Shown: positions 1,520 to 56,733 of the stretch, piece after piece | Position numbering within the stretch: position 1 is the first letter of the stretch | How the letters are laid out: each line of letters starts with the position of its first letter | Virus record (IMG/VR): IMGVR_UViG_3300033463_000020 | Origin: a virus | Lineage: Duplodnaviria > Caudoviricetes | Direction: 5' to 3' (one strand) | DNA length: 64,000 nucleotides | Notes under the pieces: generated by a model | Seen by the model: only the letters and a program-made list of their open reading frames with translations | What the model was told of the DNA's origin: nothing | Databases searched by the model: none | Program-made: the position numbers and the translations under genes

Positions 1520-2260
1520 TTATGGTTCTGTTGTGATTTTTGATACCACATTTTGGAGGGTAGCTTGTGTAAGAGGGCCGAGATTTAATACCGGGTTTTT
1601 AGAATCGTCCGCCGGCACCTGCTCGTGCATCCAGACAAAGTCATAACACACGATCGGCTATTTGGAGCCTATCACGCGCATATTTAATCCGCAATATTTG
1701 TGCAAATATCGGGTCAGGGCCTCTTGCTGAACAGGAGAACACTGGTGCAACCCCGCTAAGTAAAAGATATTCTTACGATCATACCGAACCCAATAGCTGG
1801 GGTGAAAATTCTTGCGATAGAATACAATCAACGCCAGTAGTAGGGCCTTGCCATTGGCAGACAAGTCAGGCAGGGTTGCGCAAAATTCTGTGAACTTTTG
1901 ATAGTCCTCCAAGGTCAAAGAGAGCGTGGGAGCGGCTTCGGGGGATTCCGGTACTTCAAAAACAGCGGCGTCTAACAACGTCTTTTGAAAAGCGCCTGAA
2001 ACACAGCGATCATAAGCCACCGGGGCAATAGCTGAGGCCACAGTGGCTAGCAGCCCCAGCTGATCGGCCAAATAATTTTTGATTTCCTCGATAACAGTTT
2101 TTGAGGGCTTATGCTCAGCAACCCCCTGTAAATAGAGGGTATAGATTTGCTGCGCTTCGGAACTTTTTAATTTCAGAAACTCGCACGTAGACGCAACAGC
2201 GGCCGCCTCTGCTTTGGCGCGCATATCTTGTTTATTGCGAGCATTAGGTGTGGTCGCCAT
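1520..2260 (-). CDS. Hypothetical protein (1 in-frame TAG)
   Basis: ORF 1658-2260 continues through TAG to TAA at 1520-1522, just before the next RBS. Confidence 0.7.
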
Positions 2261-31941: not shown

Positions 31942-32154
31942 ATGGGAGAAGAGAAAATTACACTCTATACCACACATTGCCCCAAATGTAAGGTACTGGC
32001 AATGAAATTGAATTCAAAGAATATCGTTTTTGACGAATGTGATGATGTTGAGGAAATGCGGCGGCTGGGCTACCAATTCGCACCGTTGTTACGCGTTGGA
32101 GATAAGGTTATGGACTTTACACAAGCTATACAGTGGGTGAATAGGAGCGTATAA
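31942..32154 (+). CDS. Glutaredoxin/NrdH-like redoxin
   Basis: LYTTHCPKC and APLL motifs; directly upstream of nrdD. Confidence 0.8.
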   Translation: MGEEKITLYTTHCPKCKVLAMKLNSKNIVFDECDDVEEMRRLGYQFAPLLRVGDKVMDFTQAIQWVNRSV

Positions 32155-32156
32155 TT

Positions 32157-34175
32157 ATGGACATTACATTAAAGTTAAATAAAGATTTTGAGCGCGCACT
32201 GGACGCGTTACGTGAAGAATTTGGGGAAGAATTTGAGTACATTAATGGTATTCATCCCAGTCAGTTAGATTATTCCGAATTTCTACAGCAATTTACGGGA
32301 CGCGATACCTTGGCAGATGCCACGATCGACCCCAACGCCAATGCTAACCATAGAGATATCCGGTCTTTTATGACGGAAAAAGGCAAGCCTTCAGATAAGC
32401 TGTTCGGCCTAAGCAAAATTTTCTACGAGATTAAAAAGCAGTGGGGATTAAAAACAGCTAAAGAATGGCTCCGCCAGGAGTTTAGCCGCGGTTTCTATCT
32501 GAACGACAGTGCGACAGCGTCGTTGTATCCGTATTGTTGGGCGCAAGACGTTACGCGTCTGGCTACGGAAGGCCTGTTTTTCCTGAACCACTACAACAAT
32601 GAAGCGCCTCAGCATTTATTGACATTCTTCGATGATGTTATCGAGTTTATTTCATTCTTGTCTAATAGGCAGTCTGGCGCGGTAGGGTTGCCCAATGTCT
32701 TAGTTTGGGCCTACTATTTTTGGAAGCATGATGTTGAAAACAACTATTACATTAAAGATCCCGAATATTATTTGCGGCAATCGTTCTAGAAGTTTATCTA
32801 TAGGTTAAATCAGCCATTCCTGAGAATCGATCAAAGTGCCTTTACTAACGTTTCTATCTTTGATCGTCCGTATCTAGAATCGCTTTTTGGAGGCGTAGAA
32901 TTTCCTGACGGATCCTTTGCTATTGATCATATCGAAGATCTGATTCATGTACAAGAAGTATTTATGGAAACGGTTTCCGAAATACGCAAGGTAAACATGT
33001 TTACATATCCTGTGCTAACTTTTTGCATCCTTAAAAAGCCCGGATTAACCGACGCAGATCGCGAGGCGATGATGCGCAATCGGCAGTGGGATCTATTTGT
33101 GGATGATAAGTTTGCCAGGTGGGCATCGAAGCACAATATGCAATGGTACGATTCGAACTTCTTCTTGTCGGACAATGTGGGCACCCTATCGAATTGCTGC
33201 CGACTTCTCAGCGACACTTCCAAGTTGGATGCTTTTATTAATAGTATTGGTGGCACCGCGCTTTCTGTTGGTAGTTGTCGTGTTAGCACTATCAATTTGG
33301 CGCGTATTGCTTATGAAGCCCTGGGCTATGATAAAAACGTTAATGTGGACCTTACCAAAATCGATCTGGAGAAGGCTAAACAGCGTTATTTAAAGATCCT
33401 AGAGGAGCGCACGCTACTTGACTGCAAGGCGCTGTTCAGTATGCGGCACATCTTGAAGCGGAATATCGAAAAGGGTCTATTGCCAAATTACTGTGACGGG
33501 GGCGTGGAACTAGACAAATAGTTCTGCACAATTGGCGCAATTGCGGCATATGAGGTTATGGATTTGTTTGGCTTGATTCAAACGGATGAGTTTGATAACA
33601 AGAGCTATTCAGACGGGGCTGTAGAATTTATGACCCAGATTTTGGATACCATTAACCGCGTCAAAGATTCCTTTGACTGTGATTACTCTATGAATTTGGA
33701 ATGCATTCCCGGCGAGAATTGTGCGGGCGTTATCTGTCAGGCTGACAATCTCTTGTTTAGACAGTCGCGTTATTTTATTTACAGCAATCAGTGGATACCG
33801 CTGATGGCTAAGTGTACTTTGCAAGAGAAGTGTCGGCTCGGGCATCTGTTCGATGAAAAATGTGGTGGTGGTACCATTGCACATATTAATGTCGAGAACA
33901 GATTCCCGAATGAGCAGGCGGCGTGGGACATGCTGAATTATGTTGCAGCATCTGGCGTTATTTATTCGGCATTCACTACTAAGATTAACGTATGTGAGCA
34001 CAAACACGCGAGCATAGGCACGAGTACGTGTCCAGAGTGTGGGGGTCCGATCGTTGACCAGTTTGCTCGTGTGGTAGGTTTTTATGTCCCTATTTCCAGT
34101 TATCAAAAGATTAGAAAACGGGAATTTGATTTACGGAAGTGGTATAACGTTTTGGAGTCCGAGAGGCTGTTTTAA
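32157..34175 (+). CDS. nrdD: Anaerobic (class III) ribonucleotide reductase (2 in-frame TAG)
   Basis: PYC, RQSGA, FTYPV, SNCCRL, GSCRVSTINL, IPGE, CPECG and glycyl-radical RVVGFY motifs; one frame. Confidence 0.9.
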
Positions 34176-34682
34176 GTGAAATTAAAGTTTTTAGTTGACG
34201 AGGACTGGAGTAATTATAAAATTTGTGCAATGTTCTTGGGGTTCCCATATTGTTCGTTTAAGTGTGAGCGCGAGTGCGGCTGTCCGGGGATATGCCAGAA
34301 CAGTCCATTGGCTCGGGCTCCAATTATTGAGGTCGACATAGATCGTATTGTCGCCCGTTATATGGACAACCCCATCTCCGGTGCTATCGTGTGTGGCGGT
34401 TTAGAACCTTTAGATTCGTGGTCGGAGTTGTTGGCGTTCGTGACTGCAGTGCGGCAGCAAACCACCGATCCGATTGTGATTTATACTGGATATTATGCCG
34501 ATGAAATTACAGAGTAGTTAGACACTCTTAAAACTTTTGAGAATATTATTGTAAAATTTGGGCGTTTTATTCCAAATCAACAATCGCGGTACGATGAGGT
34601 ATTGGGGGTAACCCTGGTTTCTAATAATCAATATGCAGTGTATCTTGGCAAGTCTACAAACGGAGGTACGAATGGAGCTTAA
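34176..34682 (+). CDS. nrdG: Anaerobic RNR activating radical-SAM protein (1 in-frame TAG)
   Basis: CSFKC, CQN, GGLEP, IYTGY, KFGRF and SNNQ motifs. Confidence 0.85.
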
Positions 34683-35796
34683 GCAATGTATCATGACCAA
34701 TTCGCGTTGCTATAAGGAAGGCGGGCGCATTGAGCCGCACATCGGTATCGTTGTGCACTCTACAGGGGTAAATAATCCCAATATAGCGCGCTATGTCCAA
34801 CCTAGCGACGACGATCCAAACAAAGACGCGATTATTGCAGATATCGGTAAAAATCGATATAGCAATGACTGGAATCACACTAACGTCAGTGCCGGAGTGC
34901 ATTGTTTCATAGGTAAAAATTTAGCAGGCGATGTTGAGTGCTATCAAGTATTGCCATGGAACAATGTGGCGTGGGGTGTCGCACGCGGTAAAATGCTGCC
35001 GAAGGGCTCTCCGTGCTATGCTGACTCCGCTCGGAAAGAAGTGGCATGCACAACCACCGAGGACAACTTACTGCCAGATGCGGTTTTTGCCACTTTGGAG
35101 AAGAGCGGCGTTGCGACCTGGCAGTACAAGGGACGGTCAGTTTATATCGAATATCGCGAGCTGGGTTCGTATAATTATGCGCCCACACCATACTTTCAGT
35201 TTGAGATCTGCGAGGATGGGCTAAAAGACGAAGCTTATTTTAGAAAATGTATGCAAACCGCACAGGAACTGTGCGCCTATTTATGCCAAACGTTTAATAT
35301 TCCGGTGGAACGGGTGGTTTCGCATCGCGAGGCATGGCTGCAAGGTTACGGAAGCGGTCATAGTGATCCGGATCATTGGCAAAAGCTGTTTGGTAAAGAT
35401 ATGAATTGGTTTAGAAGTGAGGTAACAAAACTAATGGGAACTACGACTTTCAAAGTTGGCGATAAGGTGAAATTTAAGTCCACGGCGATGACCTGGATTT
35501 CGGGAAGCACGATCCCTGCTTGGCTGAAGAGTTGGGAGCCGCTCTATGTTAGACAAATTGGTAGCGATGACACCAAGATTCTTGTATCGACTGTACCGAC
35601 TGGCGACGTAAGTGGCTGGGCTCGGGCTACAGACCTAGAGCTCTTGGAGCCCGCTGTTGATCCCACGCCGGAGCCGCAGCCGGAACCGGCCCCTGCGCCC
35701 ACGCCTGCACCTGTAGCGACCGAGCATTATAAAAAGCTCGCAGAACTGTATACGGCTATTGCTTCGGAGTTCCAGGCGATGGCCGACGGTAAATAA
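34672..35796 (+). CDS. Endolysin: N-acetylmuramoyl-L-alanine amidase with SH3-like binding domain
   Basis: IVVHSTG, VHCFIG, QFEICED, SHRE and HSDP motifs; FKVGDKV...SGW binding domain; Pro-Ala tail. Confidence 0.85.
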   Translation: MELKQCIMTNSRCYKEGGRIEPHIGIVVHSTGVNNPNIARYVQPSDDDPNKDAIIADIGKNRYSNDWNHTNVSAGVHCFIGKNLAGDVECYQVLPWNNVAWGVARGKMLPKGSPCYADSARKEVACTTTEDNLLPDAVFATLEKSGVATWQYKGRSVYIEYRELGSYNYAPTPYFQFEICEDGLKDEAYFRKCMQTAQELCAYLCQTFNIPVERVVSHREAWLQGYGSGHSDPDHWQKLFGKDMNWFRSEVTKLMGTTTFKVGDKVKFKSTAMTWISGSTIPAWLKSWEPLYVRQIGSDDTKILVSTVPTGDVSGWARATDLELLEPAVDPTPEPQPEPAPAPTPAPVATEHYKKLAELYTAIASEFQAMADGK

Positions 35797-36442: not shown

Positions 36443-39400
36443 ATGGCAGAGTTTTTTGATAGTATGGATGAAGTGCTGGCAGAATTACAGCGGCAAAATG
36501 CATTGCCAGATTTCGCCAATCCTACGGTGTCTTCTGGCCTGGGGGCTGGACGTGGTTTTGAAACAGAGAACGCTGAAAGCAGTTTAAGGAAGATTGAACA
36601 GGCCGCCAAGAAAGCACATGACGCTGGTTTAGAGGCGAGCACGGTATGGCATAAAGTTGAAAGTAAGCTGCAGCAACAAGGATATCGTATGGTTATTCGG
36701 CGGTCTCCACGTGGCCGCAATGAGTTTGAAATCTTTGCCGTACCTGACAATTTGTCCAAGTAGGAGCGTTAGGATATGAAGGTCTTGACCCAGTATCCCA
36801 ATCTCGTATGGAGTGGGCTGGAGAATGGGTTAAGTTCGCGCTATGGGCAGAAAACGATTGACCAGGGCCGATTAGATTATCTGGATGGTGCCCTGGCGTT
36901 TTATACCAATGCTACGCAATAGGCACAGGCAATTTTAAATCGTCTGACCAATCCGCGTGGCGGTAATAACACTAGGTATAATGATTATGCTAAGCTTGCG
37001 CGCAATGCCAAAAATGAGCTTGAGCGTCGTATTGCATAGCGTCATATTAAGAGTTCCGTTGCTAATGCAGAACGACATGCTAACTCTGGTTACAATGCTG
37101 TTAATAGTTATTAGACCGATGAGTTGTGGAAAATGATGCAGGGCACTGGTACGGCCCGCTCGATTGCGCAGCGCAAGTCTCTGGTAAGCATTTAGCCGAT
37201 GGTGGACTCTATATTGAATAAGGAATTCAAATAGATCATCTAGGCCTATACTAGGGCCAACCCATCGCGGCAACTAAGCAATTAGCAATTCAAAGCACGT
37301 GCCGAGCAGGATATTTTCCATACCCTATATTGGTATTTACAAAATCGTGCCGTGGACGCTTTAGAGAAAGAGTTGACCGAAGCTTCCTCAAAAGGCTGGA
37401 ACGCTGGTTATCTTTGGAAGAATCCGGAAATTCGTAAGGTCCTGCAAAATGCTGGTAGGCAATTGCACGGATTGGGGGCCGATGTCGGTCTCACCGGTGA
37501 GAGCTCGGCCAACCAAATGATGATAAACCTATTGCGGCACGGTGACATTGGGGTTTTCGGTTCACTGGGGGATAAGTCCGGCCGTAAACCTATGCAAGTG
37601 GCACAAATGCGTTAGCGGCAATAGAGAGCGCAAGAGGCTCTGGTAAAAGCGCTGATGAACTCCGCAACAAGCGGCGGTCTTTACGGCAAACGTCGTGTAT
37701 ATACAGGATGGGAGGTTGCCGCGGGGCTGGACAAGCTTGCGGAAGAATAGGCCCAGACCGGCGTTATGTTTGCCACGGCCGAGGAAATCCGCAAGGCGCA
37801 ACAGGCTCTCATGACGAGGGAAAAAAATAAGCGCAGCGCTGCTTCTGTGGGATATGGCAGTCTGCCGCACAATGGTGGTATTTTTTATAGCAAGGCATTG
37901 GGAGCAACTTTGGATAGTCACCAATAGCGATCAATGTCGGTATCTATGGAGGCTTTTAAGCGCGCGCAAGATAAGTTGGTCGATAAATTGCTGACCCCCG
38001 AAACGCGTGCCGATACTATTAAGAGCGTTGCCAAGTCGATTAAGGCTGGCGCAGCCCCACGAGCAGCATTTACACAATGGATGTCAACTTTTGCGCCGGA
38101 TCAGCGAATCGATCAGAAACAATTTTGGGAAGCCTTAGAGGCGCAAGAGTTCGCGGCAGCCTATTCCGAGGCGTTGTAGCGGCAAACTAGTCGCGAAATC
38201 CTTAGGAGTCAGAAGGGTATCAAGTTATCAACGGTCGGTGATCTCGCCCGGGTCATTGAACGGGATCCCATGGGTAAGGATCAGGTCACTATTGAATGGC
38301 TCGAAAAACACGCCATGCAGTCTGGTGAAAAACTATTGGGTGGGGCGCACTTTGTCAAGGGGCGCGCTAAAGAGATTGAAAATTTCCAGGAGTTAGCAGA
38401 GTAGATTTGGCTTGCTCGCGGGAAGAGCGCAACCACTGCGAGCAGATTGGCGAACAGGGTTGGGTTGCTGATGGAGCCCGAGAAGTTAACATCACGGAAT
38501 CCCGATGCTTTTTTGGCTGCATTCTTCGATGAGATCACTCGCGCCTTGGGAGGGGCGGGCGGTTCTCAAACACTCCTCAACTCGTTTATTGAGAGCGTCA
38601 ATTAGACAGTAGACGGAAAGAAGTGGCTTGAGCAGGAAGGTGACCATTGGAAGACGAATTTTGACCGTTTCGCGCGTCGGCCTGGTGATAGTGATGCGAA
38701 GATACAAGAGGCACTTCAGTCATATGTGACGCAGGTATAGCGCGGTTTGGCTGATGTGACGGAGCAACTCACCAAGAGGGCAGGCACACTCACCAATGAC
38801 ACTTTGAAAGCTGACGTCAATGCTCTAAATGATGAGCTAACTATGATGGGTCAAGCCTTAACGATCAAGGACGGTCAGCTGAAATATGACCCCAGCAAGT
38901 TCATCGGTGCCACGACCGTGGGGCAGCATCATGCCTATGACTATGGAGACCCGGGCCGCGCAGTACTCAACGCGGATTATCGTTTAATTGGTGCCATCAG
39001 CCGTGGTATTTTACGTAGTAACTTAGGAGGCACGACCTCTCCTGAGTATGCGCGCGCTCTATTGGGGCAGCGCAGTCGCAATGGCACGCCTAACGGGCAA
39101 TATGCCTGGCAGTTAGATTTGGATGCCAACGGCAACATTATAAACGCCGGTCAATTTGGCGGAACAGCGGAATCGCGTCGTGCTCATGAGCAGTGGGTGA
39201 AAAGTTTGGCTGCTGTTAATGATGTCAAACAATGGATGAATACACAGGGTGGTACCTGGACGGTTGCGAATTGGATGGCCAAAGGTAATCAAGACATTGT
39301 TTTGGGACATGGTCAGCTCGCGGAGTTTTTAGGTGCTCATGGTGTAGACGCCGGCGCGTTGTCAAAAAAGTAGCTCGCACAGCTCAAGAAACGTTACTTA

Positions 39401-42400
39401 GATGTGAGCGGCTTGCATGATGATTCGTTTGCGTATAAGGGCGAGTATGACGAGGGACATATGTCTGCTGCCGATTTCGCATCGAGTTTTGGGCGCATTG
39501 CGAAACTTGAAAAAGCAAATGCGGGGCGTTTGCTGTTTGTGCCTTTAACCGGAGGTATCGCCGGATCGAGCTTGGGAAAATAGTTGGTAACGAGCGCAAT
39601 CGCCCTGCCGCGTATGGACGCGCTGGGGGGCGCCGTAGAGACTATTTTAGCCAATGGGAACCGTGGTTATGATATCCCGGAACCATTGCGTATACTGCCA
39701 AGCCTTATCAATGCGTAGGATGACGTGCATTTTGCGCGAACTGGTCAACTATCAATCACACCTAAAGAGGCTTCCGAAGCTTTTACACAAGCCGCTTTTG
39801 AGAATATCGGACGAATGGTAGCCTCTGTGGAGTCGAAAAATGGTTCGGTGTGGCAGGCTGGCAATAAGGCGAAGCTATATCATTCCGCGATTCGGCACGC
39901 TACGGCGCCCGACGTCAAAGGGGGCGCCTGGGGCGCATTGGGTGATGTGGCTACTCGTATGAACCCCGAGGATCTCGAGGCCATGCTGAGCAAACAGGAC
40001 CCAGACCAAACCGATGCTCAATATCTATCGCAGTTACAAACATAGTACTATTATTTATATTCAAATTTAGTTGAAGATCCCAAAAAATTAGAGGACATGT
40101 GGTCTGCGGTGAGCAGCCGGTACAAAGGACGCGCAGCCCTGACGAAGCATCTTACAGAGCTTGTGACCCGGGGATCGGATGCTTTTAACGCTCGTGCAGA
40201 ACTGGCTCAGCATAAGAAAGTAGCATTACATGGATTGGCGGGATTCGGTCTTCGTTATCCGTTGTCGAATGCCGAAGATACGCGTGCTGCGGATATTTTT
40301 GCTGATTCCGAGTTGGTGTCCGGTGAGGTTGTGGCGGCGCTCGGTGCTGGTGCCGGGCAAAACCTGGACTTCGATGGTGACACATATGCTACTGTGCTGC
40401 AAATGTTGGGTACCAGCGATCCAGCAGAGCGCGCGAAACTGGTAGCGCAGATGGTTCGGCAGAATGAGGTAGACCAGAATCTAATGCGTCGCCAGGCCGA
40501 TGCGTTCCGTGCGGATTATGAGAAAGAGTTAAAATCGGGAGTATCCTTGGAATCCATTGCACGGGCCGAGGCGGGCGAAGTTGCAGCGGTTACATCACGT
40601 TTAAACAAGGGGTTCACGGGACGATTTAGTAACCAGTTTTAGGCGATATCAGAGGCGTTGTCGTTGAACGAGCCATGGGCTGATCGTGACACACCTATGA
40701 ATGCAGAGGAACGTGCTGCGTTCTTATAGAATCAGGTGGTTCGCGCAGTATATGAAAGCTTTACGCAAGACGCTATTTCCTCTAAAAAGGTGCGCGAGCG
40801 TATCGAGGACCGATACGGTTCGGCTTGGGCTGGCAACTCCGGATACCTCTCTGAGATGGACAAGTTGTACGAATTGATCCAGGGCAAGAATACTTATGCC
40901 GGTATTGAGAGCATCAAAGATTTGGTGACTTTGGCTCAGGATCTGAAGATTCTGGGTACTGATGACAAGGGCGGAGTGTTTGGTTGGCGGTTGAATTCAC
41001 AATTGCTGGCAAAAATGGACCAGTTCAGCGACGATGAGGTGGCAAAAGCGCTGGGTGTGTCAACGGATGTTGTACGCGCCTGGAAGGATCCCAGCAATCA
41101 AGCTGCCACTCTTGGACTCACTGGCGATCAGCTTGCGCGTCTTATAGATACGGTTAACACGCGTGTGAAACGTGACACAGGGTCGGATATTGGCGCCGTC
41201 ATTCGTGATAAGATGAACCGCGCGGGTGGTATTGATGCGACATCAAACCCCATCTATCGCGTTGGCACTGATATGGGCACGGAAGCCCAGTATGAGCGGG
41301 TTAAAGAAACGAATGCGGCTCTAGCAGAAGCCGGCGCGCAAGCCGGGGCCTTCGGCGAAGCCCTGAAAAAAGCCACAGTAGCTTTAGATACAGCCACAGA
41401 CGAAGTTAAGGAAAGCACGGCCGCAGCTCAAAAGCGCGATGACGTCCTGGAGAATCTGGAATACGCGTTGAAACACCGTGCCACAGATGCGCCCGTAGCT
41501 GTTACGAGCTTAACGAGTAGTTTAGCGGGGGGCAATTTTGCTTCTGCGCTGGATAAGGCCGCGTTTGAGGAGGCGCTTATCCTGGCGCATGCAGATAACC
41601 CCAACGCCATTTAGTCGCTCGAAGGTTATGACGCTGAGACTTTTAAAAAGTTTCGTAATAGCCTGCTTGGTTCACGTCGTGGTACCATCGCCGACCAAGT
41701 AGAACAATTGGTGAATACGTACGGTCTGGACACGAGCCAAGTTAACAGTGTTGACGACTTCATTAAATTAGTTGAGGCAGATCCGAATGCACGTCAGGAT
41801 CTATACGAGTATAATCCCTCCGAGCACGCTATTGGTTTGGGGGTACTTCTTGGCCGTGGTGACGAATCTATTTATGGCAAGGATAGCGACGCACTGAAAG
41901 CAGCGCAGCGCAATCGTGCGCTTCAAGAGGCGTTGTTTGGTACCGAGAATGTAGATGCTGACCAATGGTCTCAACTCGTTAAAGGTTTTAACTTAGCAGA
42001 GGCGTTACAGCGCATGGCTTACAATGTGGGTGGCTAGTTTATTGGTCATGAATTTGGTGTTGTAGGCGGCAATGGCGCAGGTAACGCTGCCGGATGGAAC
42101 CATGGTCGTATTGACCTTTTGATGAAGAGCGTCGGAACACGTTCCGATGGTTCTACATATAATATTCTAGACGTTTTTGATAAAAAGAGTGTCCCGAGTT
42201 TAAGTCAGCTAGATAAATATGGACCTGGACTAAATTATCTCGCGCAGGTTGCTGTGTATGCAGAGGATCTGCGGTAGTTATAGGCTTATATTAATAAACA
42301 TGGCATAAAAACGCTGGGGCAATTAAAAGATAATAAAGAGTATTATTAGAACGCATGGCTGGCCAAGGGTGGCCGCGAGATTGATGATGAAACGTTTGCG

Positions 42401-45400
42401 TTATTGAGCGACCCCTCTACCGTTATTCGTGCTGCATTGACTTATGTAGACGATTATGGTAATATTCGAAATTATGACGTAGGCAGCGGTTTGGGTGGCG
42501 ATAAAGCATTGATGCGGCGTTTAGCAAATTATGCTATGCATGAAATCCCCGAGGCCAAGTGGGAGCCAGGCGATGCTGAGGTAATTAGACAAATCACGCG
42601 GATTAATAACCGAGGTGTAGCATTTGGCGGCCATGGTGGCGGCGGAGGCGGCGGCCCAGTTATTCCCATTGTTGGTGGAGCCGGAACGTCTGGCAACGGC
42701 GGCCTGATGAAAGAACTGAGCAGTGGCTTGGGTAAATATATCGGTCGTATTTTGGGCGGTAGTGGTTTGTATCGCTTATTTGCTAAGGTGCGCCAGGGGA
42801 TTGCATCTCTGGTAAAAGAGGCCACTGAACTGGACAAGACGTTGACGAACCTGCAAATTACTACTGGCGGTACACGTGAAGACACACGCCAACTGCTTTC
42901 TACATATGCGCAACTTGGACGTCAGCTCGGCGCTACCACACAAGAGGTAGCAGCTTCGGCGCTCGAATGGCAACGTTAGGGTTATGAGGCTGGCGAAGTG
43001 GCCGATCTGGTGACGTCATCTTTGTATCTAAGCAAACTCGGCATGATTGACGCCTCTACGGCAACGTAGAATTTAACTTCCGCCTTAAAGGGCTTTAAAA
43101 TCGCTGCATCTGAGTCTATGGATGTCGTCGATAAATTGACAGCAATTGACTTAAAAGCAGCAACTTCCGCGGGTGAAATTGCCAACGGCTTAGCCCAGTT
43201 TGCAAACATAGGTAGCTTGGCTGGTGTAAATCTTGACGAAGCGGCAGCGTATGTCGCGACAATCGCCGATGTTACCCAAATGAGTGGGTCGTCCGCAGGA
43301 CAAGCGCTAGAATGTTTTTGGCGCTTTATAGGGATAATACATAACCCTATTGGTAAAATCTTTTCTAATGATTAATATTAGATTTAATATTATGCTTGAA
43401 AACCCAGAAGTGGGCAACAAGGAGGAATTCGTTTTGATAGTTCAACAAAAATTGTGTAAATATTGTGGTAAGATATTTACACCCAATAGTCCGCGGCCCG
43501 ACTTGGTGCAATATTGTAGTCAGCATTGTAAATATGCGGCGGATTATAGTAAAAAATATCGTTATACTTATACGTGCACAAATTGTGGCGCCACAATTCA
43601 TCGCAGCCGCAAAATTACAGGGGCGTAGCCATTTTGTAATCAAGCATGTTTGAGCGCGTATGAGCATCGGCAATCGTATGAAACGCGCACATGTGAAAGT
43701 TGCGGGCAAATTTTCGAATGCGCCAAAACTAGCACGCAAAGGTTTTGTAGCCCTGAATGCCAAATTACGTGGCAGCGTGAGTATCCGAGGAGTGGGGGCG
43801 ATCACCCCGCATATCGGCACGACGTCAGCATCGCTGAGCGTACAATAGTTTGTGCATGGTGTGGCGTATCTTTTGTTGTCGAACCATGGCAAATTTCTAA
43901 AACTAAATTTTGTTCGCGTTAGTGTAAGCATGCAGCAATGTTAGATGCGGCACGTACCCAAAAAACTTGGGCTGAGCGTGTGGATACGGCTCCTTAGCGC
44001 ATCGCCAATGCTTTACTAGAGAGGTTGGGGATCGCATTTGTAAATGAGTATCCGTGCGGCTATTTTAGTTTAGATATTTATTGTGCAGAATTGCATATGC
44101 CCATTGAGGTGATGGGTACGTATTGGCACGCAGATCGCCGTATATATTCGACATTATCTGAAATATAGCGTCGAGATATCATTCAGGATAAGCGCAAACG
44201 CACATATGTACGGAATCATTTATCGGCCGAGATCTTATATCTTTGGGAGCAAGATTTATATGACGACCCGGCATTATGCGCGGCTTTGGTATCTTTATAT
44301 ATTGAATAGCATGGACAACTATTGAACTATCATTCACATAATTATCATCTAGAGAACGGACAGGCGGTGTTGAACGATTGTCCATTGGAAAATTATGTGG
44401 ACGCTGAGAATGATTACCACTCATTACTTGGCAACGGAGCCTTGAACGACTGAATGAAAAGACCCCATTTCGATGGGGATGCGACAGTCTGAACACGGGT
44501 ATAACAACAAGAAGCCCGTGAGCCGCGGTCGAGTGTAAAGACACTCTTGGAAGCACCGTGGCCCTCCGATAATAACAGGAGAGTAACAAAATTGTAAAAC
44601 AATTATATCACGCTATGGTAATGTTAAAGCCGGGGCTTTTAATAAAATGACCCTGGATGCCGACACTGGTGATGGAACCACGTTAAACGATGTTGAGCGT
44701 GTTTTATCCAAGCTGGGCATCAGTATTCGTGATAGCAATCTGTCGTTTAAAGATTTTAGCACCATTCTAGAAGAGATTGCCTCTAGATGGCAGACGTTAG
44801 ATAACGTTTCGCAACGTGCGATTGCAAATGCGTTTGCCGGCGTAAGACAGCAAGAGGCTTTTACGACTCTACTTTAGAACTGGGATAAATATCAAGAGTT
44901 ATTAGCAACCTCGCAGCAGTCCAAGGGTACTGCCGAAACCAAGTACGCGGCATACTAGTAGTCTTTGCAAGCGGCTCAAAGCGCACGTAAGACGACTTGG
45001 GAACAATTAGCCAACAGCGCAGAAATTTCTGAGCTACTAATTGCGATTAATAACGTGGGCAGATGGTTGGGAGAGTTTGTTCCCTTTCTGCTGAAGTGGT
45101 TACCACATGCGTTAATTTTAGCCGATCAGATCTTTTCAATACGCGGCGGCGGGTTTTTGAATGGCTTAATTAATTAGTTCTCACAAATGAAATTATTTTC
45201 AGCGCATAGCTTGAAAAATGAGAAATAGAAAACCCAAGAAACCAAAAAGCAGTATCGGGCCGAGCAGCAGAAGACTGAAGAAGAGAAGCATTAGGTGCAA
45301 GCGGAGCAAGAGCAAACTCGCCAAGATCAGCAACAAGCAGCAGGAGGATCGGGAGATGGCAAGACATCTGCCCGAGGCCGGGGCGGCGCGCATAGCAAGG

Positions 45401-48400
45401 CCCAGGTTATTAGTGCTGGTATTACTTACGGCCTCGGTCAAATTGCTTCGGGCTTAAGTGCTTATGGCAGCGCTGGGGCTACGCATACTTTTACGAATGC
45501 CGCCGGCGAAAGTCGTGACGTCAACTCTTCTTAGCGCGCACGTCAGGCTGGACGCGGGATCGCAGCGGTTTTAGCCGTAGCCTTACCCGCCGTTGGCGCT
45601 ATTCTTGGCAATATCGTGGGCGATGAAGTTAGCCGTCGGATTGATGCGGCACGCGATGCAGCCGACGAGCGTACGCGGGTGGCATAGGAAAATTTGCACG
45701 TATTAACCAGCGCACAAACCAACTTGGAAACTATGATCCGACTACGAAATGCGGCTCTCGTCTCAGAAGAAAAAGAGCGCGATCAAGCCATTGCTGAGTA
45801 TATCGCGACTATGTATGCTTCGGATAATGTTGCGGTACGGGAAATCTTAGAGAAGTATTTAAAACAGATTTACGGAGAGACCAAAACTATTAGGCAAGTA
45901 ACCGAAGCGATGCATTCGGGTGATGAAAAGGAGCGCGCTTAGGCCGCACACGCCCTAGAATTGGCCCAGGCATAGGCCGAGCACGCTCAAACGCGTCGAG
46001 CTCGAGCGTCTGAGGACTATGCGGAAGCCGAAAGATTGCGTGAGGCTATGCTGGCATATAATGCGTCACGTCCGGGGTATACGGCCAGCGGCATTAGCAA
46101 CCGGACTAATGGTCTGAATATAGGACATAGTGCTGGCGTTGGGGCAACGGCAGGTGGTCTTGTCATGGGCGGTGAGGTCGCCGCTATGCTGGCGGCGGCT
46201 GGCGCAGTAAGTGCCATTCCTGTGTGGGGGTGGATTATAGCAGCGGCATTAGCAGCTACAGCCGGTGTGGGCGCGGGTGTAGCCGCTTATAAGTCGAGAT
46301 CGGCCAGAAGCGAGATTGAGGAAGGGCAAAACTGGTCCTGGGAAGAGCAGTGGGACGACCTGAAGCTGGACGAGAAGATTTCGCGGTTATTAGCGGCTGA
46401 AGAGGCCCAAAAAGACGCAGTCGAACGTAACGCACGGGGTGCCACTGAACAACTTGAGGCTACGCGTGCCCTCCGAGAAGCCTACGAGGATTATCGCGAG
46501 TATTTACGCGCATAGTATGAGGAAGATAACAAAGCTAAAATGGATGAGGCTTTGATTTATGCTGGTTGGTAGTCTAACGGCTCTTTTAATACTGATTCGA
46601 GCGATATTAACGCCACAGAGTACTTCTTGAAGGATTTGAACGTCGTATAGGCAAAAAATTACGGGCAAAAGGCGTTGTATGACGCGCTGGCTGAAGCGCT
46701 GGGCGAAGGTGCGCTTGAGGGCATTAATATTAAAAATGCCGAGGGTGAATATACTGAGTATTTTGTAAATTATGCACGGCATATTATGTCCGAGAATGAG
46801 GACGTAGAGTCTGTTCTCAGCGGCGAAGCGTATACCTTGAATGAGGCGCTTGACAAGCTAGGCTCAAACACTGATCAATTTAGTCGGGCGACGATGCAAG
46901 ATTTCGCACGTGCAATGCGTGTTGCACGCAAAGAACTGGGGGACTATAGTGAGCTGGTGGGCGAATTAACTTTGGCTGAATTGATGATGACGACCACAGA
47001 GCTCGAAGAAGAGTTCGACAGCTTATACGGAGTACTGGGGAAGGTATCGGACGGCACGCAGTCTGTAACCAAGTGGATGACAGACATTGTGGCTCACTAC
47101 CCCGATTTAATTAATTACATGAGTAGCACTCCGGCGCTCATTACCGCAATCGTGAACAAGCTCTATGACTTAAACAATCAAACCATGCGTCAACAATATG
47201 AAGAATATGGTGAAAGTACATCGTTCTGGGCAAAGACGATGCGCCCGGGCGCTGAAGGTTGGCTGGCTGAACAGGAGAAGCAGGGGAACATTACCTCAGC
47301 AGAACACGAAGCGGTGCTTAAACTGATCCAGGATAAGCGAATTACTAAGCTGAACGAGGCGGTGCAGAGATTGGCCGTGGTGCCATCTTTGGCTGAAGAT
47401 AGCCCGTTGCGGCGTACCTACGAGCTCATGGAACGGGCTATAGAGGCGGGCACTAACGGAGTTATCCTACGCTCGGATATTTGGACTGAACAGACCCAAA
47501 AGCTGACCAATTTTATTGCCGAACAACTTAAAGCTCAAGTGGCTGCGCTAGAGGCTCAAAAACAGGCGTTGCAGGATGTTAACAAACAGCGACAATTTGA
47601 GGTTGAGCTTCTAAATGCACGCAATAAACTTGCAGACGCAATGAATCAAAAGCAGCGCGTCTATCGTACCGGCGTAGGTTTTGTATATGAGCCTGATCAG
47701 GGGGCTATCAAAAAGGCGAAAGAAGAACTGTAGGAAGTCTAGTTACAGAAAGACGTGTCGAAAATTACTAAGCAAATCGACATCTTGCAGGAGGAAGCGA
47801 GTTAGTGGGAGACCCTGTGGAGCACGCGTACCAAGGAGCTCTAGGAGGCAGTTATTGAGGAAATTTGGGGCAAGAATTACACGAATTTTAAAACCGCGTT
47901 ATTTGGAGATTCTGCGCAGCAGACCTTGAATGTTGGTGAGCATGGCGTTAAGGTGGACGCCGCGAGTCTTCATGAGTAGCTTGATACTATTTTTGGTACG
48001 AGTAAAGGTGCGTTTAGCACTAGTATACAGACTGCTGTTTTTGGATCTACTGAGACGTTGGCTACTTGGTGGCAAAAAACAGGCGCGACATCGGTCGAGT
48101 CATTGTTTGGTTATTTACAGGCCATTATAGATAATCAGAACAAAGAGACGAACCCCCAGGTTTTAGAGTTACAGTAGGCGTTCAAAACCTATAACAAGTT
48201 AGCTTCAGCTCGGGGTAACGGTGTATCGGTTGACGCCAATGAGTGGAACTCGGCATTACAGGATTATAAGACCAAATTTACTGCCGCAGTAAATGCGGGG
48301 CTCATAGATGAGAATTGGGCATTCAATTAGAATTATAATCTCACCAGCCAAAGTCACGCCCCGGGCAGCCGATATGAATATACTTATAATCCCTGGGATC

Positions 48401-49311
48401 TTGGAAACCATGTTGATAAGCTTCTGATGACCCCCAGCGCAGTGGAGGCTGTGTCGACCGTTGGCGAGATATTCCGACAGGGCGTGGTTCAGGCGCGTGC
48501 AGGATATGCGTGGCCTTAGGGGGAGAACCCTTACAATTCCGCAGTTCAAGTTACGGGATATGTGCCCATTGAGCCCACCTCAACGTTTGCCACTGGTTTG
48601 AATCGCGTTAAGAACGAGTTTAAGTGGGGTGATGGTGAGGGGAAAGAGCGCGCCTGGTTCTGGACCCCGGGTCTGCTTAAGAGCGGGGGGGCCGAGTTTT
48701 CTGAAGGCACCTCGAGCGACCTAATGACAGCATTTACATCGGCTAATAACTGGTCTGATGTTGCGCGCAACTTAGCTGACGAAGATGAGTTTTTAATTTG
48801 GACCCAAGATGGCGGTTATATCTTATTATCCGGCGGTCACGCATACAAAGCGAACACAGCGACATTGTATGAGGTAGGTAAGACGTTGGCGCAATAGGGA
48901 TTGAGCGGATAGGAGCCCTCTCTCGGACATACGACCAGAGGAAGCCACGCGGCTGGAAGCCTCGGATTGGCTCAAACTGGTACGAGGTTAATTAATGAGT
49001 TTGGCACTGAAGCGATTATTACCCCTTCTGGCACCATTACTGCGCTACCTTCGCATACTGGGATTATTCCTGCCGATATTACGCGGAATCTTTGGCAGTT
49101 GGGTGAAGTAGCGCCTAGTATTTTGCGCGTCGCCGAAACCATTGCACCCGATAGCATTCTCCGCAGCAGCACCCAGTCTGCTATAACAGATCAATCGTTT
49201 AATATCAATAATTTGTCGATGAGTGTCAATGCCGACGATAGTTTTGACGTAGATGCCTTCATTGAAGCGATTAAATCCCGCGTTGCCTTGACGCATCACG
49301 CTCACCGATAA
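36443..49311 (+). CDS. Giant tape measure protein (~3,860 aa after splicing) fused to an N-terminal two-barrel RNA polymerase and a PD-(D/E)XK nuclease; exons 36443-43308 and 44595-49311; about 50 in-frame TAG
   Basis: All fragments share a frame within each exon with no TAA/TGA; TP901-type motifs (EWQR[Q]GY, GQALKTIISR, FAGVRQ); C-terminal INEFGTEAII; RNAP motifs GEK...KG, RYP and NLDFDGD. Confidence 0.85.
43309..44594 (+). mobile_element. Group I intron, 1,286 nt
   Basis: P1 exon AAGCGCU with IGS GGCGCUU and a U-G pair at the splice site; terminal G at 44594; P10, P3, P7 and P8 pairings; removal restores the frame and GQAL/KTIISR. Confidence 0.9.
43434..44453 (+). CDS. Intron-encoded homing endonuclease: zinc-finger repeats plus Vsr/DUF559-like (EDxHD-type) nuclease, 5 in-frame TAG
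   Basis: AAGGAGG RBS and TTG; four CxxC...(F/Y)CxxxC units; NEY...LDIY...IEVMGTYWH...DKRK...LWEQD. Confidence 0.8.
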
Positions 49312-49515: not shown

Positions 49516-52500
49516 ATGGCGGTTTATAAACCCACTTTGTGCTATCCATTTTCCAATGGTCTAGACATTCGCACGGGTGTCCAGAAAATTAGCGAGACGG
49601 GTGCGCTCGTAGATCCAGCGCAATGCTTGACGTGCCGTATTGAAACGTCCAATGTTGCAATTACAGGATATTCAGTAGCATTGTTTTCGACGGCTCACGA
49701 ACAAATTTTTCCCAAAGTTTTTGAAGATGCGACCAATAAGATACCGTATGTGAGTCCAATTTCGGAATTGCAGTATGCGTCTTTGGGTTATGACGCACAG
49801 AATCCCACGGGGGTTAACTCGGGTGTTAATGGTGCAACATTGCGTATTCCTTTTTTCCGTGCTACACGTGCAGACACTGACTATCCGAGATCATTAAACG
49901 CCATATATTATCAAGCTGATTATGTTGTGGCACATTTAATTTTAGACGAAACCGCTGCAGAGGAGGCGCCTAGTGATTACCGAGCCACACGAGACCCCAG
50001 TGTATATACTAATGTCGATGAGGCCGAGTACTGGAAACAAACGACGCGTACGGGGGGTACGTATTTAATTCATACGACTACCACCGATCCCACCGATGTC
50101 ACACATATTTCCAATGCCAGTTATGTTGCAAATGGTGGCGCTTTAATATGTGATGGCGAACCCTTAATTGTGGGTGATTTAGTAGGGGTGATTTTGGGTA
50201 CTGAACCCCAAAGTGGTGCACCTATCTAGATGACCAAGGGTGGTATATATGAGGTTGCCACAATTCCTGCGGCAGACGACGATAGTCGTATGATTTTCGC
50301 GCTAAAATTGCGTAATACGTTAGCGCTAAAAAGCCGTTTAGTGGTTTGGCAAGGTGCGTCTTTGCATAATACCATGTGGGAGGTTACTACTGATGGTTTG
50401 GGGTAGCGTGGCGCATTGGACGATGCTTTGTGGTGCGATACCTACGGTAACCCCGTAGAGTTGGACGCGCGGGGGACGCATTATCAATGGGAGATTACGC
50501 TCTACCAAGGCACTACCGCGATTGGCGAGTCGCTACCCATTTTACCCGCCGATACTGTAATGCGCACTCGTTATGGTGGCTGGGTAGATTATACAACTAT
50601 TGGCCCTCAATGGTTTGATAATATTGTAACTGGTGGACAAATTATGGGGTCGACGCCAGAACGGCTGTAGTTGGCCGATGCCAGTGAGCAATATTTACCG
50701 GCGGGTACCGATTCGGATCCCCTGGTGTTACAAGATACATTTTGTGCTATATTCCCGTTGCCCGCAGGGTCGGCAACAGATTATACATCCTGGTCGAGTA
50801 TTAGTCGCTTTCCTGTGCATGATTACGATGCACGTTATGGGCATGTATATCCTTATGCCAAAACTTTGTTAGGCCTGAGTCCGCCCAGCGCAGAATAGTG
50901 GTGTGCTTTTTATGAACACTCAACAAATCCGCAGGAAATCTTAGACACAGATATTGTGGATTATGCATATGCTACGGAACTAGCCTTAAGTTTCTGGCAC
51001 GTAACCGATGGCGCTTGGCACCAAGATTCGATATCTGCAAATGACTATAACGCTGTCGATCTTTGGAAGGGCGTGTCCGTGACCGAACGGTATCTGGTCG
51101 TGGGATCGGACGGTAGTTATAATCCCAATCCTACAGGTAGTGGCGGTCAAATTTTGTTAACTGCGCAATCCAGACGGTGGCAAAATGGCGTGTGGCAAAT
51201 TAAAACGATGGAAGCAGCTTGGGGGAATAGCACAAGTAAAAAATATTATTTAACTCGTGCAGCTAAGTATGAAACCTGGGGCGATTTCATTGGCCGCATC
51301 GTCTATGCCCCACAGCCGTCCAGTATGAACTGGACTAGCCTAGCAGCAGCCGGGGCCGCCAATTTGTGGAATTACCAAGATGTCGATATGCAATATGGTC
51401 GTGGGGATTTAGTATTTTCACCTGAGCGACCTATTCTATTGTTCCGAGAAAAATTATGGCACGTAAATAATTTTACTGGCGTGGTCCGTAGTGTGGATCT
51501 ATATAGCGCTTACTCGGCGGGGTCAGGTTTTACCCCGCAAGATAGCGACGGTGCCCGTTAGAACGCATGGCAAATTGGCGATTATGTGGCGGATCGCACG
51601 GGTACGATCTATTATGTTGCGGGCTGTACGCGCAATCACACGTAGTTTACTTTGGAGCGGGTCGGTAACGCCGCAAATTATGCCTTTATTTATGTCGTCA
51701 ATTTTGCGCGAACGTCTACGGGAATTCTTTATGATGCCGGGGGCACCGTTTATACCTGGGTTCCGGCGACGAATTCAGAGCCCGCGAGCTGGCAACAAAC
51801 ATGGGAGTTACATCGTGCTAAAATTTTAAAGAATAATACGACGTATACTTATGTCTCTCCTTGGGTTAAGGGTGTGGTGGATGCACGTATGAGCATGAAA
51901 TTGCTTAGTCCGGGTGTTGCGGTGGTCGCAAACTCGAACGTCACCACTGATATTATTCGTATTCGTGGCCTGAATGACGTGGTCTATCGTTTAGATCACG
52001 ATGCATTGGATGAGCCCATGGAAGCATATGGCGCGAGCAACCCCTTTATTCCCTATCGTTACAACATCTGTAGTTATTTCCGCACATCGGAGCCGAATCC
52101 CTTTATTGCATATGAGCGTCCGTATTTACGGCTATTCTTAGAGCAAGAATTGTTGACTAATTTATCGATGGTTGCGCCTAGTGTGCCTACTGCTGTAGAA
52201 ACCAGCCATCCTTTAGCGGTGGAGTGGTTGGAGCACATTACCACATATGTGGCAAGAAAACTCAACTTAGGTGTTGAATACCAGCAATTTAACCACACGA
52301 TGTGGGAAAGTTACTAGTGGAAATTATATTCGGGTGATGGTACGACCCTATTGCAAGACACCGGACGGTGCTACGATGGACTAATTTAGACAACATTTTA
52401 TGGTTTGGCCAACGAGCTGAGTGCAAATGTTCCCTATTGGGCTTCTGTGATTGTGGAGAACAGTGTCGGCGATGTTTTGGAATATCGCTTACGTTTTGAA

Positions 52501-55500: not shown

Positions 55501-56733
55501 TGGGATACGGTGATCGAAGCAAGTGGTACTGCGGGTACGCCGCCCGCGGCCTGGGATGTCACTGAGTCAAGCTTGGCGTATTCATTTATTAGCAATAGCA
55601 TTGCTTATACTGGTATTTATATCGACGAATATGGGTGTATGTATTATACGGCGAATAATATAAATACGCTTGTTTTTGATACGGTAGGTGCCGTGGGGCC
55701 CACTGGCTGGCAGGATGAGGGTTATCGCACCATTGTGTCTACCGTAGATCCCGACACAGTATTCTTGCAAGACTGGGCGGTTTTCTACGATAAAAATACC
55801 GACGGTGTGATTCCCACCCCCTTGTTCCCCGTGCAATGGAACTTTGTCATGGAAACCGAGAGTCCTACAGATGTTGCGAACTATTGGACGGTCCTCGGTT
55901 CCTATGTTAATGTTGGGTTCTACAGCAATGGCACGTCCTATACACGGTTCTCCGTTGACAGCGATGGTAGCATTTATTATGGTACGACGTCTAGTAACAC
56001 ACTTGTATATGACTATATTGCTGGTTGGGTACTGCCTGCATACCGGACAATAGCATGTGAAACGAACCCTGAACTATCTTTTGTTGGCAGTGATTGGAGC
56101 GGTTTCTATCGCGCTAATACTGTCCAAACCTAGTGGAGGAGCAGTCTAGACACTGGTTTAGAAGTTGATGGCGGCTCTATTTGGGGCGTTAGAGACGAGA
56201 CATTGTCGATTACTTTTGTATCTAATAGCACGACATACTCGTCTATTTATATTGATACTGAGGGCAGCATGTATTATGGTGGCACCATGGTATATGAGTA
56301 TCAGACCGGCTGGGTGAACGACGAGTATCGCATCATTACGACGGCGCAGCCCGCTACAACCGCATTCAATCACGGCGACTGGCTCACTTTTTATTATGCG
56401 AATACCGGCGCAGTGACGTATTGGCGCAGCAGATTGGAACCTTCAGGAGAGGATATGTCATATGAGGTGCTGAATCGGACCCTGTATTGTGCATTTATGT
56501 GCAATGGTACGATGTATGCATCGCTGTCTTTTGATAATGCGGGTAATTTTTATTACAACACGGCCCGGTAGTTTGGTGGAGGTACCAAAGTTTACGACAA
56601 CAATAGTGGCTGGGTACAGGGCGCCTATCGCTTGATCGCCACCGCTAGCAGCGGTAGCGAAGTCTTTGGCTTTGATGACCAAGACTGGTCAGATTTTTAC
56701 GACGCGAATGCTAACATTACAGATGAAGATTAA
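49516..56733 (+). CDS. Large tail/baseplate/receptor-binding protein, 2,405 aa (more than 20 in-frame TAG), with Fn3-like segments and four C-terminal repeats
   Basis: Twelve ORF fragments in one frame joined only by TAG; AGGAGG RBS; ends at TAA 56733. Confidence 0.8.

Follow-up and report, generated by a model that had tools for sequence, protein, structure and literature searches.

The window analyzed here is a stretch of 64,000 nucleotides from the virus record IMGVR_UViG_3300033463_000020 (Caudoviricetes; phage genome of 149.6 kb, recorded with direct terminal repeats). On its plus strand, at 36443-49311, lies a gene in two exons for a giant tail tape measure protein, which has 3,860 residues after splicing. 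We propose that residues 1 to approximately 1,500-1,700 of this protein form a single-chain two-barrel RNA polymerase, in which a beta-like part precedes a beta'-like part, and that this enzyme is fused to the tape measure, active, and delivered in the virion. Taken as a whole, we regard this proposal as rather probable. An earlier note on the same DNA had claimed a beta-like followed by a beta'-like catalytic region. The claim is borne out by two independent structure models, which match complementary polymerase subunits exclusively at the top of the searches.

Predicted fold and conserved motifs

Two AlphaFold2 models were made with family alignments, one of residues 1-940 and one of residues 335-1534. 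They were compared with the PDB by Foldseek and, independently of Foldseek, by a VIA search; the structure libraries searched held 48,161 and 350,542 chains. The model of residues 1-940 had a predicted local distance difference test score (pLDDT) of 78.9 and a predicted template modelling score (pTM) of 0.70. With Foldseek, its top 50 matches were all RNA polymerase entries (E 2e-3 to 4e-2), namely second-largest subunits by chain label and length (vaccinia Rpo132, bacterial beta). With VIA, the top nine matches were all of the beta/Rpb2 type (Z 8.6-11.2), with 278-473 residues aligned over residues 25-848. The best of them was chain C of the phiKZ non-virion polymerase (Z 11.2, 278 aligned, root-mean-square deviation 4.1), followed by Pol III B (Z 10.3), AR9 chain C (Z 10.1), and Pol I (Z 10.0); Xanthomonas beta reached Z 9.7 with 423 aligned residues. 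The C-terminal halves of the phiKZ and AR9 beta chains align over residues 363-848. Below these nine matches, VIA falls to unrelated helical bundles at Z 7.4; these fall on an insertion (residues 685-812) that is specific to the family.

The model of residues 335-1534 (pLDDT 75.2, pTM 0.61; most 10-residue blocks of approximately 855-1360 at pLDDT 85-96) matched the other large subunit. Foldseek against the PDB gave 106 hits at E <= 1e-3, and the best 50 of these 106 were all RNA polymerase entries of the beta'/Rpb1 type by chain label (Thermus, E. coli, AR9, phiKZ). The top nine VIA matches were all largest subunits (Z 8.0-8.8, 308-410 residues aligned over 930-1514); the largest-subunit matches comprised Rpb1, RPA1, archaeal A', vaccinia Rpo147, mycobacterial beta', AR9, African swine fever virus, and Pol IV. 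Single-chain enzymes scored lower (RDR2 Z 7.5, QDE-1 Z 7.4, gp96 Z 6.5). Isolated or designed double-psi beta-barrels (7dww Z 6.8, 7dbo Z 6.3, VAT-N, CDC48-N) align to residues ~1147-1351, around the DFDGD motif. Structure prediction followed by Foldseek had been suggested in the earlier note, and it places RNA polymerase subunits on top. Models and sequence together strongly support a complete beta-like module (~25-848) and a beta'-like module at ~930-1514, which probably continues to ~1700. By these models and the conserved residues, barrel A carries a DxDxD metal-binding triad, and barrel B comes from the beta-type part with a candidate basic pair.

Against BFVD, the best matches of the model of residues 335-1534 were an unnamed entry and a "Minor tail protein [Siphoviridae sp.]", both at ~E 4e-15 over ~1,100-1,200 columns. 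These best matches are pieces of giant proteins, and polymerase subunits of jumbo phages and giant viruses come next. Pieces of further uncharacterised giant proteins in BFVD resemble the same model by Foldseek: A0A172Q021_2 from Acinetobacter phage vB_AbaM_ME3 (E 3.5e-6), A0A386KLD2_1 from Microbacterium phage Burro (E 8.7e-5), and A0A075BUT7_2 from Microcystis phage MaMV-DC (E 1e-2). The family profile found nothing in the ME3 genome, whose two DxDGD sites both lie in small open reading frames (ORFs). If the resemblance is real, ME3, Burro, and MaMV-DC would be cultured systems carrying similar proteins.

The features of the polymerase part are as follows. All motifs quoted in the earlier note were found at the positions that it gives.

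36515..38986 (+): beta-like (second-largest-subunit-like) module, residues ~25-848, from AlphaFold2, VIA, and Foldseek.

37487 (+): GLTGESS... motif, already quoted in the earlier note.

37571 (+): DKSGRKPMQ... motif, likewise quoted before. The conserved family motif R-K-x-x-Q is at residues 381-385.

37865 (+): PHNGG, at the position of the beta GYNFED motif.

38315..38362 (+): MQSGEKLLGGAHFVKG, that is MQSGEK630LLGGAHFVK639G, the candidate basic pair of the second double-psi beta-barrel (DPBB-B), proposed from the invariance of K630 and from hhalign against RpoB. The conserved family motif is S-G-x-K with Lys630.

38459 (+): VGLLMEPEKLTSRN, another motif of the earlier note.

38495..38878 (+): helical-bundle insertion between the halves of the beta-like barrel region, residues ~685-812, for which VIA gave only unrelated helical bundles (Z ~6-7.4).

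38942..38983 (+): YGDPG...DYR with G835, P837, D845, Y846, and R847 invariant, on the strands that end the beta-like match. The conserved family motif is YGxPG...DYR at residues 834-847.

39230..40984 (+): beta'-like (largest-subunit-like) module, residues ~930-1514, from AlphaFold2, Foldseek, and VIA.

39833..39886 (+): SKNGSVWQAGNKAKLYHS (SKNGS...YHS), which resembles beta' GKQGRFRQNLLGKRVDYS. K1132 and S1148 are conserved, and the equivalence is suggested by order and spacing only. The conserved family motif is K-x-G-S...H-S at residues 1132-1148.

39881..40495 (+): predicted first barrel (DPBB-A), residues ~1147-1351, to which the isolated barrels align at model positions 809-1021.

40247..40381 (+): GLRYPLSN...NLDFDGD, the R-x-P strand and the aspartate triad D1309, D1311, and D1313, with RYP at 40253 and NLDFDGD at 40361-40381. 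The conserved family motif is R-x-P-x-S-x-G-x-D...N-x-D-x-D-G-D at residues 1271-1313.

40595..40642 (+): SRLNKGFTGRFSNQFQ, a conserved helix in the model and a putative bridge helix, in which Q1400 is encoded by TAG. The conserved family motif is SRxNKxxTGxxSNxYQ at residues 1385-1400.

40751..40792 (+): YESFTQDAISSKKV, which starts with YESFTQ and is the most conserved motif of the family, putatively like the trigger-loop start GEPGTQ. The conserved family motif is FExFTQDAISSKKV at residues 1437-1450.

40985..41542 (+): conserved continuation of the polymerase region, residues ~1515-1700; relatives align to ~1693.

Conservation was read from 17 distant giant tape measure proteins (21-41% identity) that have the same front part. 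One DxDGD alone is no rarity in a protein of 2,310 residues (~0.03 expected, a rough estimate); its conservation in relatives of such low identity is the test. D-x-D-G-D was kept in 14 of the 14 long relatives that reach the site and in several fragments, and the triad D1309, D1311, and D1313 is conserved in every relative covering these positions. The invariant or near-invariant columns are R381, Q385, K630, G835, P837, D845, Y846, R847, K1132, S1148, R1271, P1273, D1309, D1311, G1312, D1313, Q1400, T1441, and Q1442; as far as the alignment goes, they coincide with those that a polymerase reading predicts. Lys630 is invariant, and a second Lys or Arg follows 7-10 residues downstream in all 17 sequences. 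The E. coli beta barrel has two lysines, 8 residues apart; Lys630 and the basic residue after it recall this pair and are our candidate for it. The earlier note had named the absence of the DFDGD or the lysines from homologues as a result that would speak against a polymerase; DFDGD and Lys630 are retained, and the second position of the pair is Lys or Arg. The stretch with GLTGESS and RKPMQ, putative fork-loop-like and RALMGANMQRQ-like motifs, is conserved in the family as well, with residues 383-392 below pLDDT 50 in the model of residues 1-940. The putative bridge-helix and trigger-loop motifs follow each other in the order known from beta', and the beta' structural matches extend to ~1514.

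Sequence links to known polymerases are weak and converge on these sites. When 177,635 PDB sequences were searched with a profile of the beta'-like region, vaccinia Rpo147 ranked first (E 0.03) and two bacterial beta' chains came next (E 0.44 and 0.45), in each case at the NADFDGD loop. The spacing from R-x-P to N-x-DFDGD is 36 residues in the window protein and 33 in E. coli beta'. With hhalign, the family aligned to E. coli RpoC at 454-474 (pairwise E 0.0019). In E. coli RpoB, the best stretch was 1049-1117, the GDKMAGRHGNKG...NPLGVPSRMN region (pairwise E 0.08), which is the region that the earlier note had proposed for the beta basic pair. PF00623 matched below threshold at the DFDGD loop in 3 of 14 relatives and found nothing in the phage's own genome.

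Gene structure, recoding, and relatives

The region 36443-43375 is a single frame of 2,310 codons once TAG is read as a residue; it contains 30 in-frame TAGs and breaks into short ORFs under the standard bacterial code. The earlier note had stated that TAG codons and an intron would hide the gene from standard gene callers. Its reading of TAG as Gln is strongly supported by sequence comparison: at the Q1400 column, where the window has TAG, all 16 relatives covering the column have Gln, and over all TAG positions Gln makes up 18% of the aligned residues of the relatives against a background of 4.8%. In addition, a tRNA with anticodon CTA, which reads TAG, adjoins a tRNA-Gln(TTG) in a block of nine tRNA genes (genome 119879-119953, ~79850 in window coordinates and thus outside the window).

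The tape measure family match stops at ~43308 and picks up again in the ORF 44647-49311. Joining 43308 to 44595 leaves no gap relative to P0045, a relative with an uninterrupted gene in the standard code, and gives 82% identity across the junction. The intron at 43309-44594, also claimed in the earlier note, is confirmed at the protein level because the spliced protein is gapless against the intron-less P0045. It contains an HNH-type endonuclease ORF at 43350-44453 with 5 TAGs, assigned by HNH PHROGs. In an Rfam scan of 43200-44700, no group I model and no other Rfam model matched.

The remaining parts of the gene are the following.

36443..43308 (+): exon 1 of the fused polymerase-tape measure gene, comprising codons 1-2288 and two further bases, with 30 TAGs as Gln.

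41543..42625 (+): stretch of ~360 residues (~1701-2061) between the polymerase and the poly-glycine linker, with no match in Pfam, PHROGs, or PDB sequences.

42626..42655 (+): poly-glycine linker GGHGGGGGGG, read from the translation.

42752..43308 (+): start of the tape measure domain, residues 2104-2288 (PF10145 E 3e-18, phrog_4211 E 4e-29).

43309..44594 (+): intron with the HNH-type endonuclease ORF, from protein colinearity and HNH PHROGs.

44595..49311 (+): exon 2, coding for the remainder of the tape measure, 43% identical to residues 2399-4214 of P0045 and with a PHROG tape measure continuation.

The gene product has the properties of a tail tape measure protein, judging by its domain, its position in the tail module, and its membrane-like segments. 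Tape measure families match residues 2104-2290 (the two matches listed above, PF10145 being at 2157-2290, and 11 tape measure PHROGs in all). Its neighbours include terminase and portal genes on the upstream side and a tail protein on the downstream side, and hydropathy indicates membrane-like segments at spliced residues 2607-2632 and 2811-2854.

Residues 1-2100 of the window protein gave no match in Pfam, PHROGs, or PDB sequences, and a word-indexed homologue search with the same residues among proteins of similar length returned nothing. A single-protein locus search in IMG/VR found no relative. A profile search returned mostly proteins that have only the tape measure domain in common and one true relative, P0045 (4,214 residues, 39% identity, 99% coverage, single standard-code frame), whose public name is only "phage tail tape measure protein" and whose contig is syntenic with the window. 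Out of 1.84 billion representatives, 43 proteins were matched in an exhaustive search with HMMER; 13 of them are giants of 2,400-4,600 residues, colinear over the front part and also equipped with the tape measure domain. Three further relatives were found through a degenerate TQDAISSKK DNA pattern, which hit one viral locus and 13 metagenome loci: L004 uses the standard code, and L002 and L014 have in-frame TAGs. The clusters of the relatives are small (1-5 members), many are on contigs of 113-146 kb, and the relatives stay aligned with the window protein to approximately residue 1693. Polymerase and tape measure are in one frame in all 18 family members, the window included. As standard-code relatives carry the fusion in an uninterrupted frame, the fusion claimed in the earlier note is, by this comparison, genuine and no artefact of TAG read-through. 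The models and alignments thus show a polymerase fold with a conserved catalytic set and a conserved fusion to the tape measure.

Upstream of the gene, at 32133-35796, lie anaerobic ribonucleotide reductase genes (NrdD-/NrdG-like) and an endolysin, in the same order as in the P0045 contig; this neighbourhood is unusual for a tape measure gene. Right after the tape measure gene, 49516-56733 (+) is an ORF of 2,405 residues with 22 TAGs and no PHROG match, and the P0045 contig has a counterpart of 2,257 residues in the same place.

Second polymerase, promoters, and expression timing

The window contains a second two-barrel polymerase gene at 2244-5213 (-), coding for 989 residues with DADFDGD at residue 562 and 2 TAGs. 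It scored above threshold on PF05183 (RdRP, E 9e-9), and its PHROGs are of unknown function. Its tblastn matches include YonO-family genes (24-33% identity) from SPbeta-like phages of Bacillus, from Clostridium phage c-st, and from phages of Enterocloster and Thomasclavelia. We considered this gene as a paralogue of the fused enzyme and rejected it, as it is YonO-like instead; the family profile found no second copy of the fused polymerase in the phage genome. The sole searchable piece of the relatives' contigs, one 29-kb fragment, gave no match to the YonO-like gene.

Genome-wide, there are ~14 copies of an intergenic TTGAC-17 bp-TATAAT element with a conserved CCCAA just before the -10. These elements look like strong host sigmaA-type promoters. 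Outside the window there are more of them; the copies within it are at these positions.

900 (-), 8104 (-), 8695 (-), 8757 (+), 58030 (+), 58362 (+), and 60418 (+): TTGAC-17-TATAAT elements.

They precede TAG-free genes, the tRNA block, and the operon with the YonO-like gene. No repeated promoter-like motif was found before the TAG-rich structural genes. A Bacillota host is indirectly supported by these sequence data, since the YonO-like relatives are in Bacillus, Clostridium, and Enterocloster phages and the promoters are of the sigmaA type.

TAG usage differs between the genes. TAG accounts for 0.16-0.24 of the Gln codons of the polymerase part and for 0.17-0.22 of those of the tape measure part. 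In the YonO-like gene and in five TAG-free genes that were checked, two of them ORFs of the upstream structural region and three from the TAG-free block downstream, this share is 0-0.05. As the high TAG share requires the phage suppressor tRNA, the fused polymerase would be translated late, when this tRNA is active, alongside the virion proteins. Therefore, early functions would be possible only if the enzyme is carried into the next cell. It is probably not a general early transcriptase, because most TAG-free genes, the tRNA block, and the YonO-like gene are behind sigmaA-type promoters. More probable than transcription of all early genes is that it serves a small pre-early set or that it ties transcription to the entry of the DNA.

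Proposed role of the fused enzyme and comparison with known systems

The conserved residues suggest that the fused polymerase is catalytically active, and by analogy it would be delivered with the DNA in the virion. The polymerase would be built into the tail together with the tape measure. In the next infection, it would exit the tail with the tape measure, whose membrane segments would form a DNA conduit. The N-terminal polymerase would then end up at the cytoplasmic mouth of this conduit and transcribe the incoming DNA. Its targets may be a small pre-early gene set, and it may also or instead aid in pulling the genome in, as proposed for gp96 of Thermus phage P23-45 (PMC10770324).

Several points weigh against this proposal. 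It is hard to see a folded module of ~190 kDa fitting into a tail tube; the enzyme of P23-45 is small and flat, whereas the window enzyme appears to keep the beta' N-terminal region. With ~14 strong host-type promoters, early transcription may need no injected enzyme. The sequence-level statistics against known polymerases are individually weak, though all at the same sites. In the model of residues 335-1534, Lys630 is part of a loop of low confidence (positions 292-313 of the model, below pLDDT 50). The acidic position of beta GYNFED is G-G in this family, as the earlier note had cautioned from PHNGG. No match to the polymerase-tape measure protein was found by tblastn among 50,697 phage records, and no cultured relative came to light.

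Some of these points would fit other explanations. An active polymerase might stay undelivered, with no function in the next infection, and do its work, e.g., on late structural genes, in the cell that makes it, be it ahead of assembly or once cleaved from the tape measure. The enzyme is made in the late, TAG-dependent class, host-type promoters already serve the TAG-free genes, and another polymerase may read the TAG-rich structural genes, which lack a repeated promoter-like motif; a poly-glycine linker also separates the modules. However, all 18 members keep the polymerase in frame with the tape measure, which would be needless for a purely intracellular enzyme, and no protease site or domain was detected with Pfam. 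Moreover, the phage already encodes a YonO-like polymerase, the type used for late genes in SPbeta; YonO is said, in work attributed to Forrest and colleagues in 2017, to transcribe the SPbeta late genes. We consider the undelivered enzyme unlikely. Slightly less likely again is a module that derives from a polymerase and is catalytically dead. Such a module would clamp or plug DNA, or it would be a scaffold at the end of the tape measure nearest to the head, e.g., to hold the DNA end or guide ejection. The loss of the acidic GYNFED position and a divergence so large that no Pfam model passes threshold would suit it. Dead enzymes usually lose catalytic residues, however, whereas the columns best conserved in this family, at 21-41% identity, are the aspartate triad, R-x-P, the basic pair, and the bridge-helix- and trigger-loop-like motifs.

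The fold alone leaves template and product unfixed, and with QDE-1, RDR2, and gp96 among the structural matches (Z 6.5-7.5), a two-barrel enzyme of other chemistry or template could be imagined, such as a QDE-1-like RNA-dependent polymerase, a primase-like enzyme, or a PolD-like DNA polymerase. We find this improbable: the best and longest matches are DNA-dependent multisubunit polymerases and include whole beta lobes that QDE-1-type enzymes lack, and PolD is not among the top 50 matches of either search, although this last point is weak evidence only. Most improbable of all is a chance resemblance, in which an N-terminal extension of the tape measure with an unrelated fold happens to carry DFDGD. 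The window's own protein has no significant Pfam, PHROG, or PDB sequence match, as would be expected then, but this is contradicted by two models, each of which has one of the complementary polymerase subunits, and nothing else, at the top of libraries holding 48,161 and 350,542 chains, and the motifs are conserved across relatives.

The single-chain, virion-delivered polymerase can also be set out in a fuller form, which we put forward only tentatively. Phages of ~110-150 kb, of which some are TAG-recoded, would in this view form a lineage with a second, independently evolved polymerase-tape measure fusion, built on a complete cellular-type beta-beta' chain. Three polymerases would share the programme: the host enzyme at sigmaA-type promoters, the YonO-like enzyme, and the fused one. 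Anchored at the conduit of the tape measure, the fused polymerase would transcribe DNA as it enters and assist in drawing it into the cell. Since its translation has to wait for the suppressor tRNA, it would be strictly an enzyme of the next infection.

The precedent cited in the earlier note exists: a virion RNA polymerase fused to the tape measure has been proven for P23-45, namely gp96 (Chaban et al. 2024, PMC10770324; PDB 8H2M, 8H2N), with counterparts in P74-26, G20c, and TSP4. Its DFDGD is at 779-783, and its active fragment 327-1124 (~800 residues) is flat and has no clamp (PMC10770324). It groups with gp64, QDE-1, and phage single-subunit enzymes (PMC10770324). Like gp96, the window enzyme is an N-terminal two-barrel polymerase with a DFDGD loop in one frame with a giant tape measure protein, with membrane segments further along, and its similarity in sequence to known polymerases is limited to the DxDxD loop. 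The suggestion that it is a divergent example of the P23-45 type did not hold, as its architecture is different and much larger. With ~1,500-1,700 residues it is about twice the size of gp96, it has a full beta-like module with lobes, and its beta'-like match begins near the N-terminus of Rpb1-type chains. Between the two proteins, hhalign aligned only 23 columns at DFDGD (probability 1.4%), and the structural match is weak (VIA Z 6.5, 204 aligned) compared with Z 8-11 for multisubunit polymerase subunits. The second polymerase of P23-45 is a paralogue that is transcribed by the virion enzyme (PMC10770324), whereas the one here is YonO-like, no paralogue, and behind host-type promoters. We therefore file the fused enzyme as resembling gp96 in position and proposed role and, on sequence and models, as outside the gp96 family; in these terms, it is a separate, larger, cellular-type version of the polymerase-tape measure fusion.

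The multisubunit polymerases of the jumbo phages phiKZ and AR9 (PDB 7OGP, 7S00) are likewise phage-encoded beta/beta'-type enzymes. They are the best or among the best matches for the beta-like module (Z 11.2 and 10.1) and rank among the top ones for the beta' part (Z 8.4 and 7.7), and jumbo phages of this type also package a virion polymerase copy (PMC7824862). Theirs consist of four or five polypeptides outside tail proteins, in contrast to one chain joined to the tape measure here, and the barrel insertion in the window enzyme is a helical bundle. With cellular RpoB/RpoC and Rpb2/Rpb1, the enzyme has in common the order of beta then beta', fold matches over 300-470 residues, and the motif order of basic pair, K-x-G...YS, R-x-P...NxDFDGD, and bridge-helix-like and trigger-loop-like motifs. 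In contrast to them, it is approximately half their size, passes the threshold of no Pfam model, has G-G in place of the GYNFED pair, is fused to a virion protein, and shows no alpha, omega, or sigma partners. Natural beta-beta' fusions occur in some bacteria (Helicobacter).

Polymerases within giant virion proteins that are ejected into the host are also known from crAss-like phi14:2 (gp66) and from N4 (PMC10770324). Unlike the window enzyme, gp66 is QDE-1-like and not part of a tape measure protein, and the N4 polymerase is T7-like with an unrelated fold; gp66 (6VR4) was absent among the structural matches listed. YonO of the Bacillus prophage SPbeta, a single-subunit two-barrel polymerase, belongs to the same superfamily, but the fused enzyme is not YonO-like. 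Full-text literature searches for tape-measure-fused polymerases found only the P23-45 work.

Experimental proof of an injected RNA polymerase fused to the tape measure comes from a single small group of Thermus phages. Should the enzyme described here be active and delivered, this strategy would be no oddity of thermophiles and would have arisen at least twice, from different branches of the two-barrel superfamily. The recoding of a stop codon would bind production of the enzyme to the late phase of infection. The finding also points to a gap in annotation, as the sole public name found for a relative is "tape measure protein", the BFVD look-alike is called "minor tail protein", and Pfam and PHROGs miss the polymerase. 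As a natural beta-beta' polymerase in a single chain of ~1,500 residues, for which no accessory subunits were detected, the enzyme would be useful for questions on the minimal cellular-type polymerase and its evolution.

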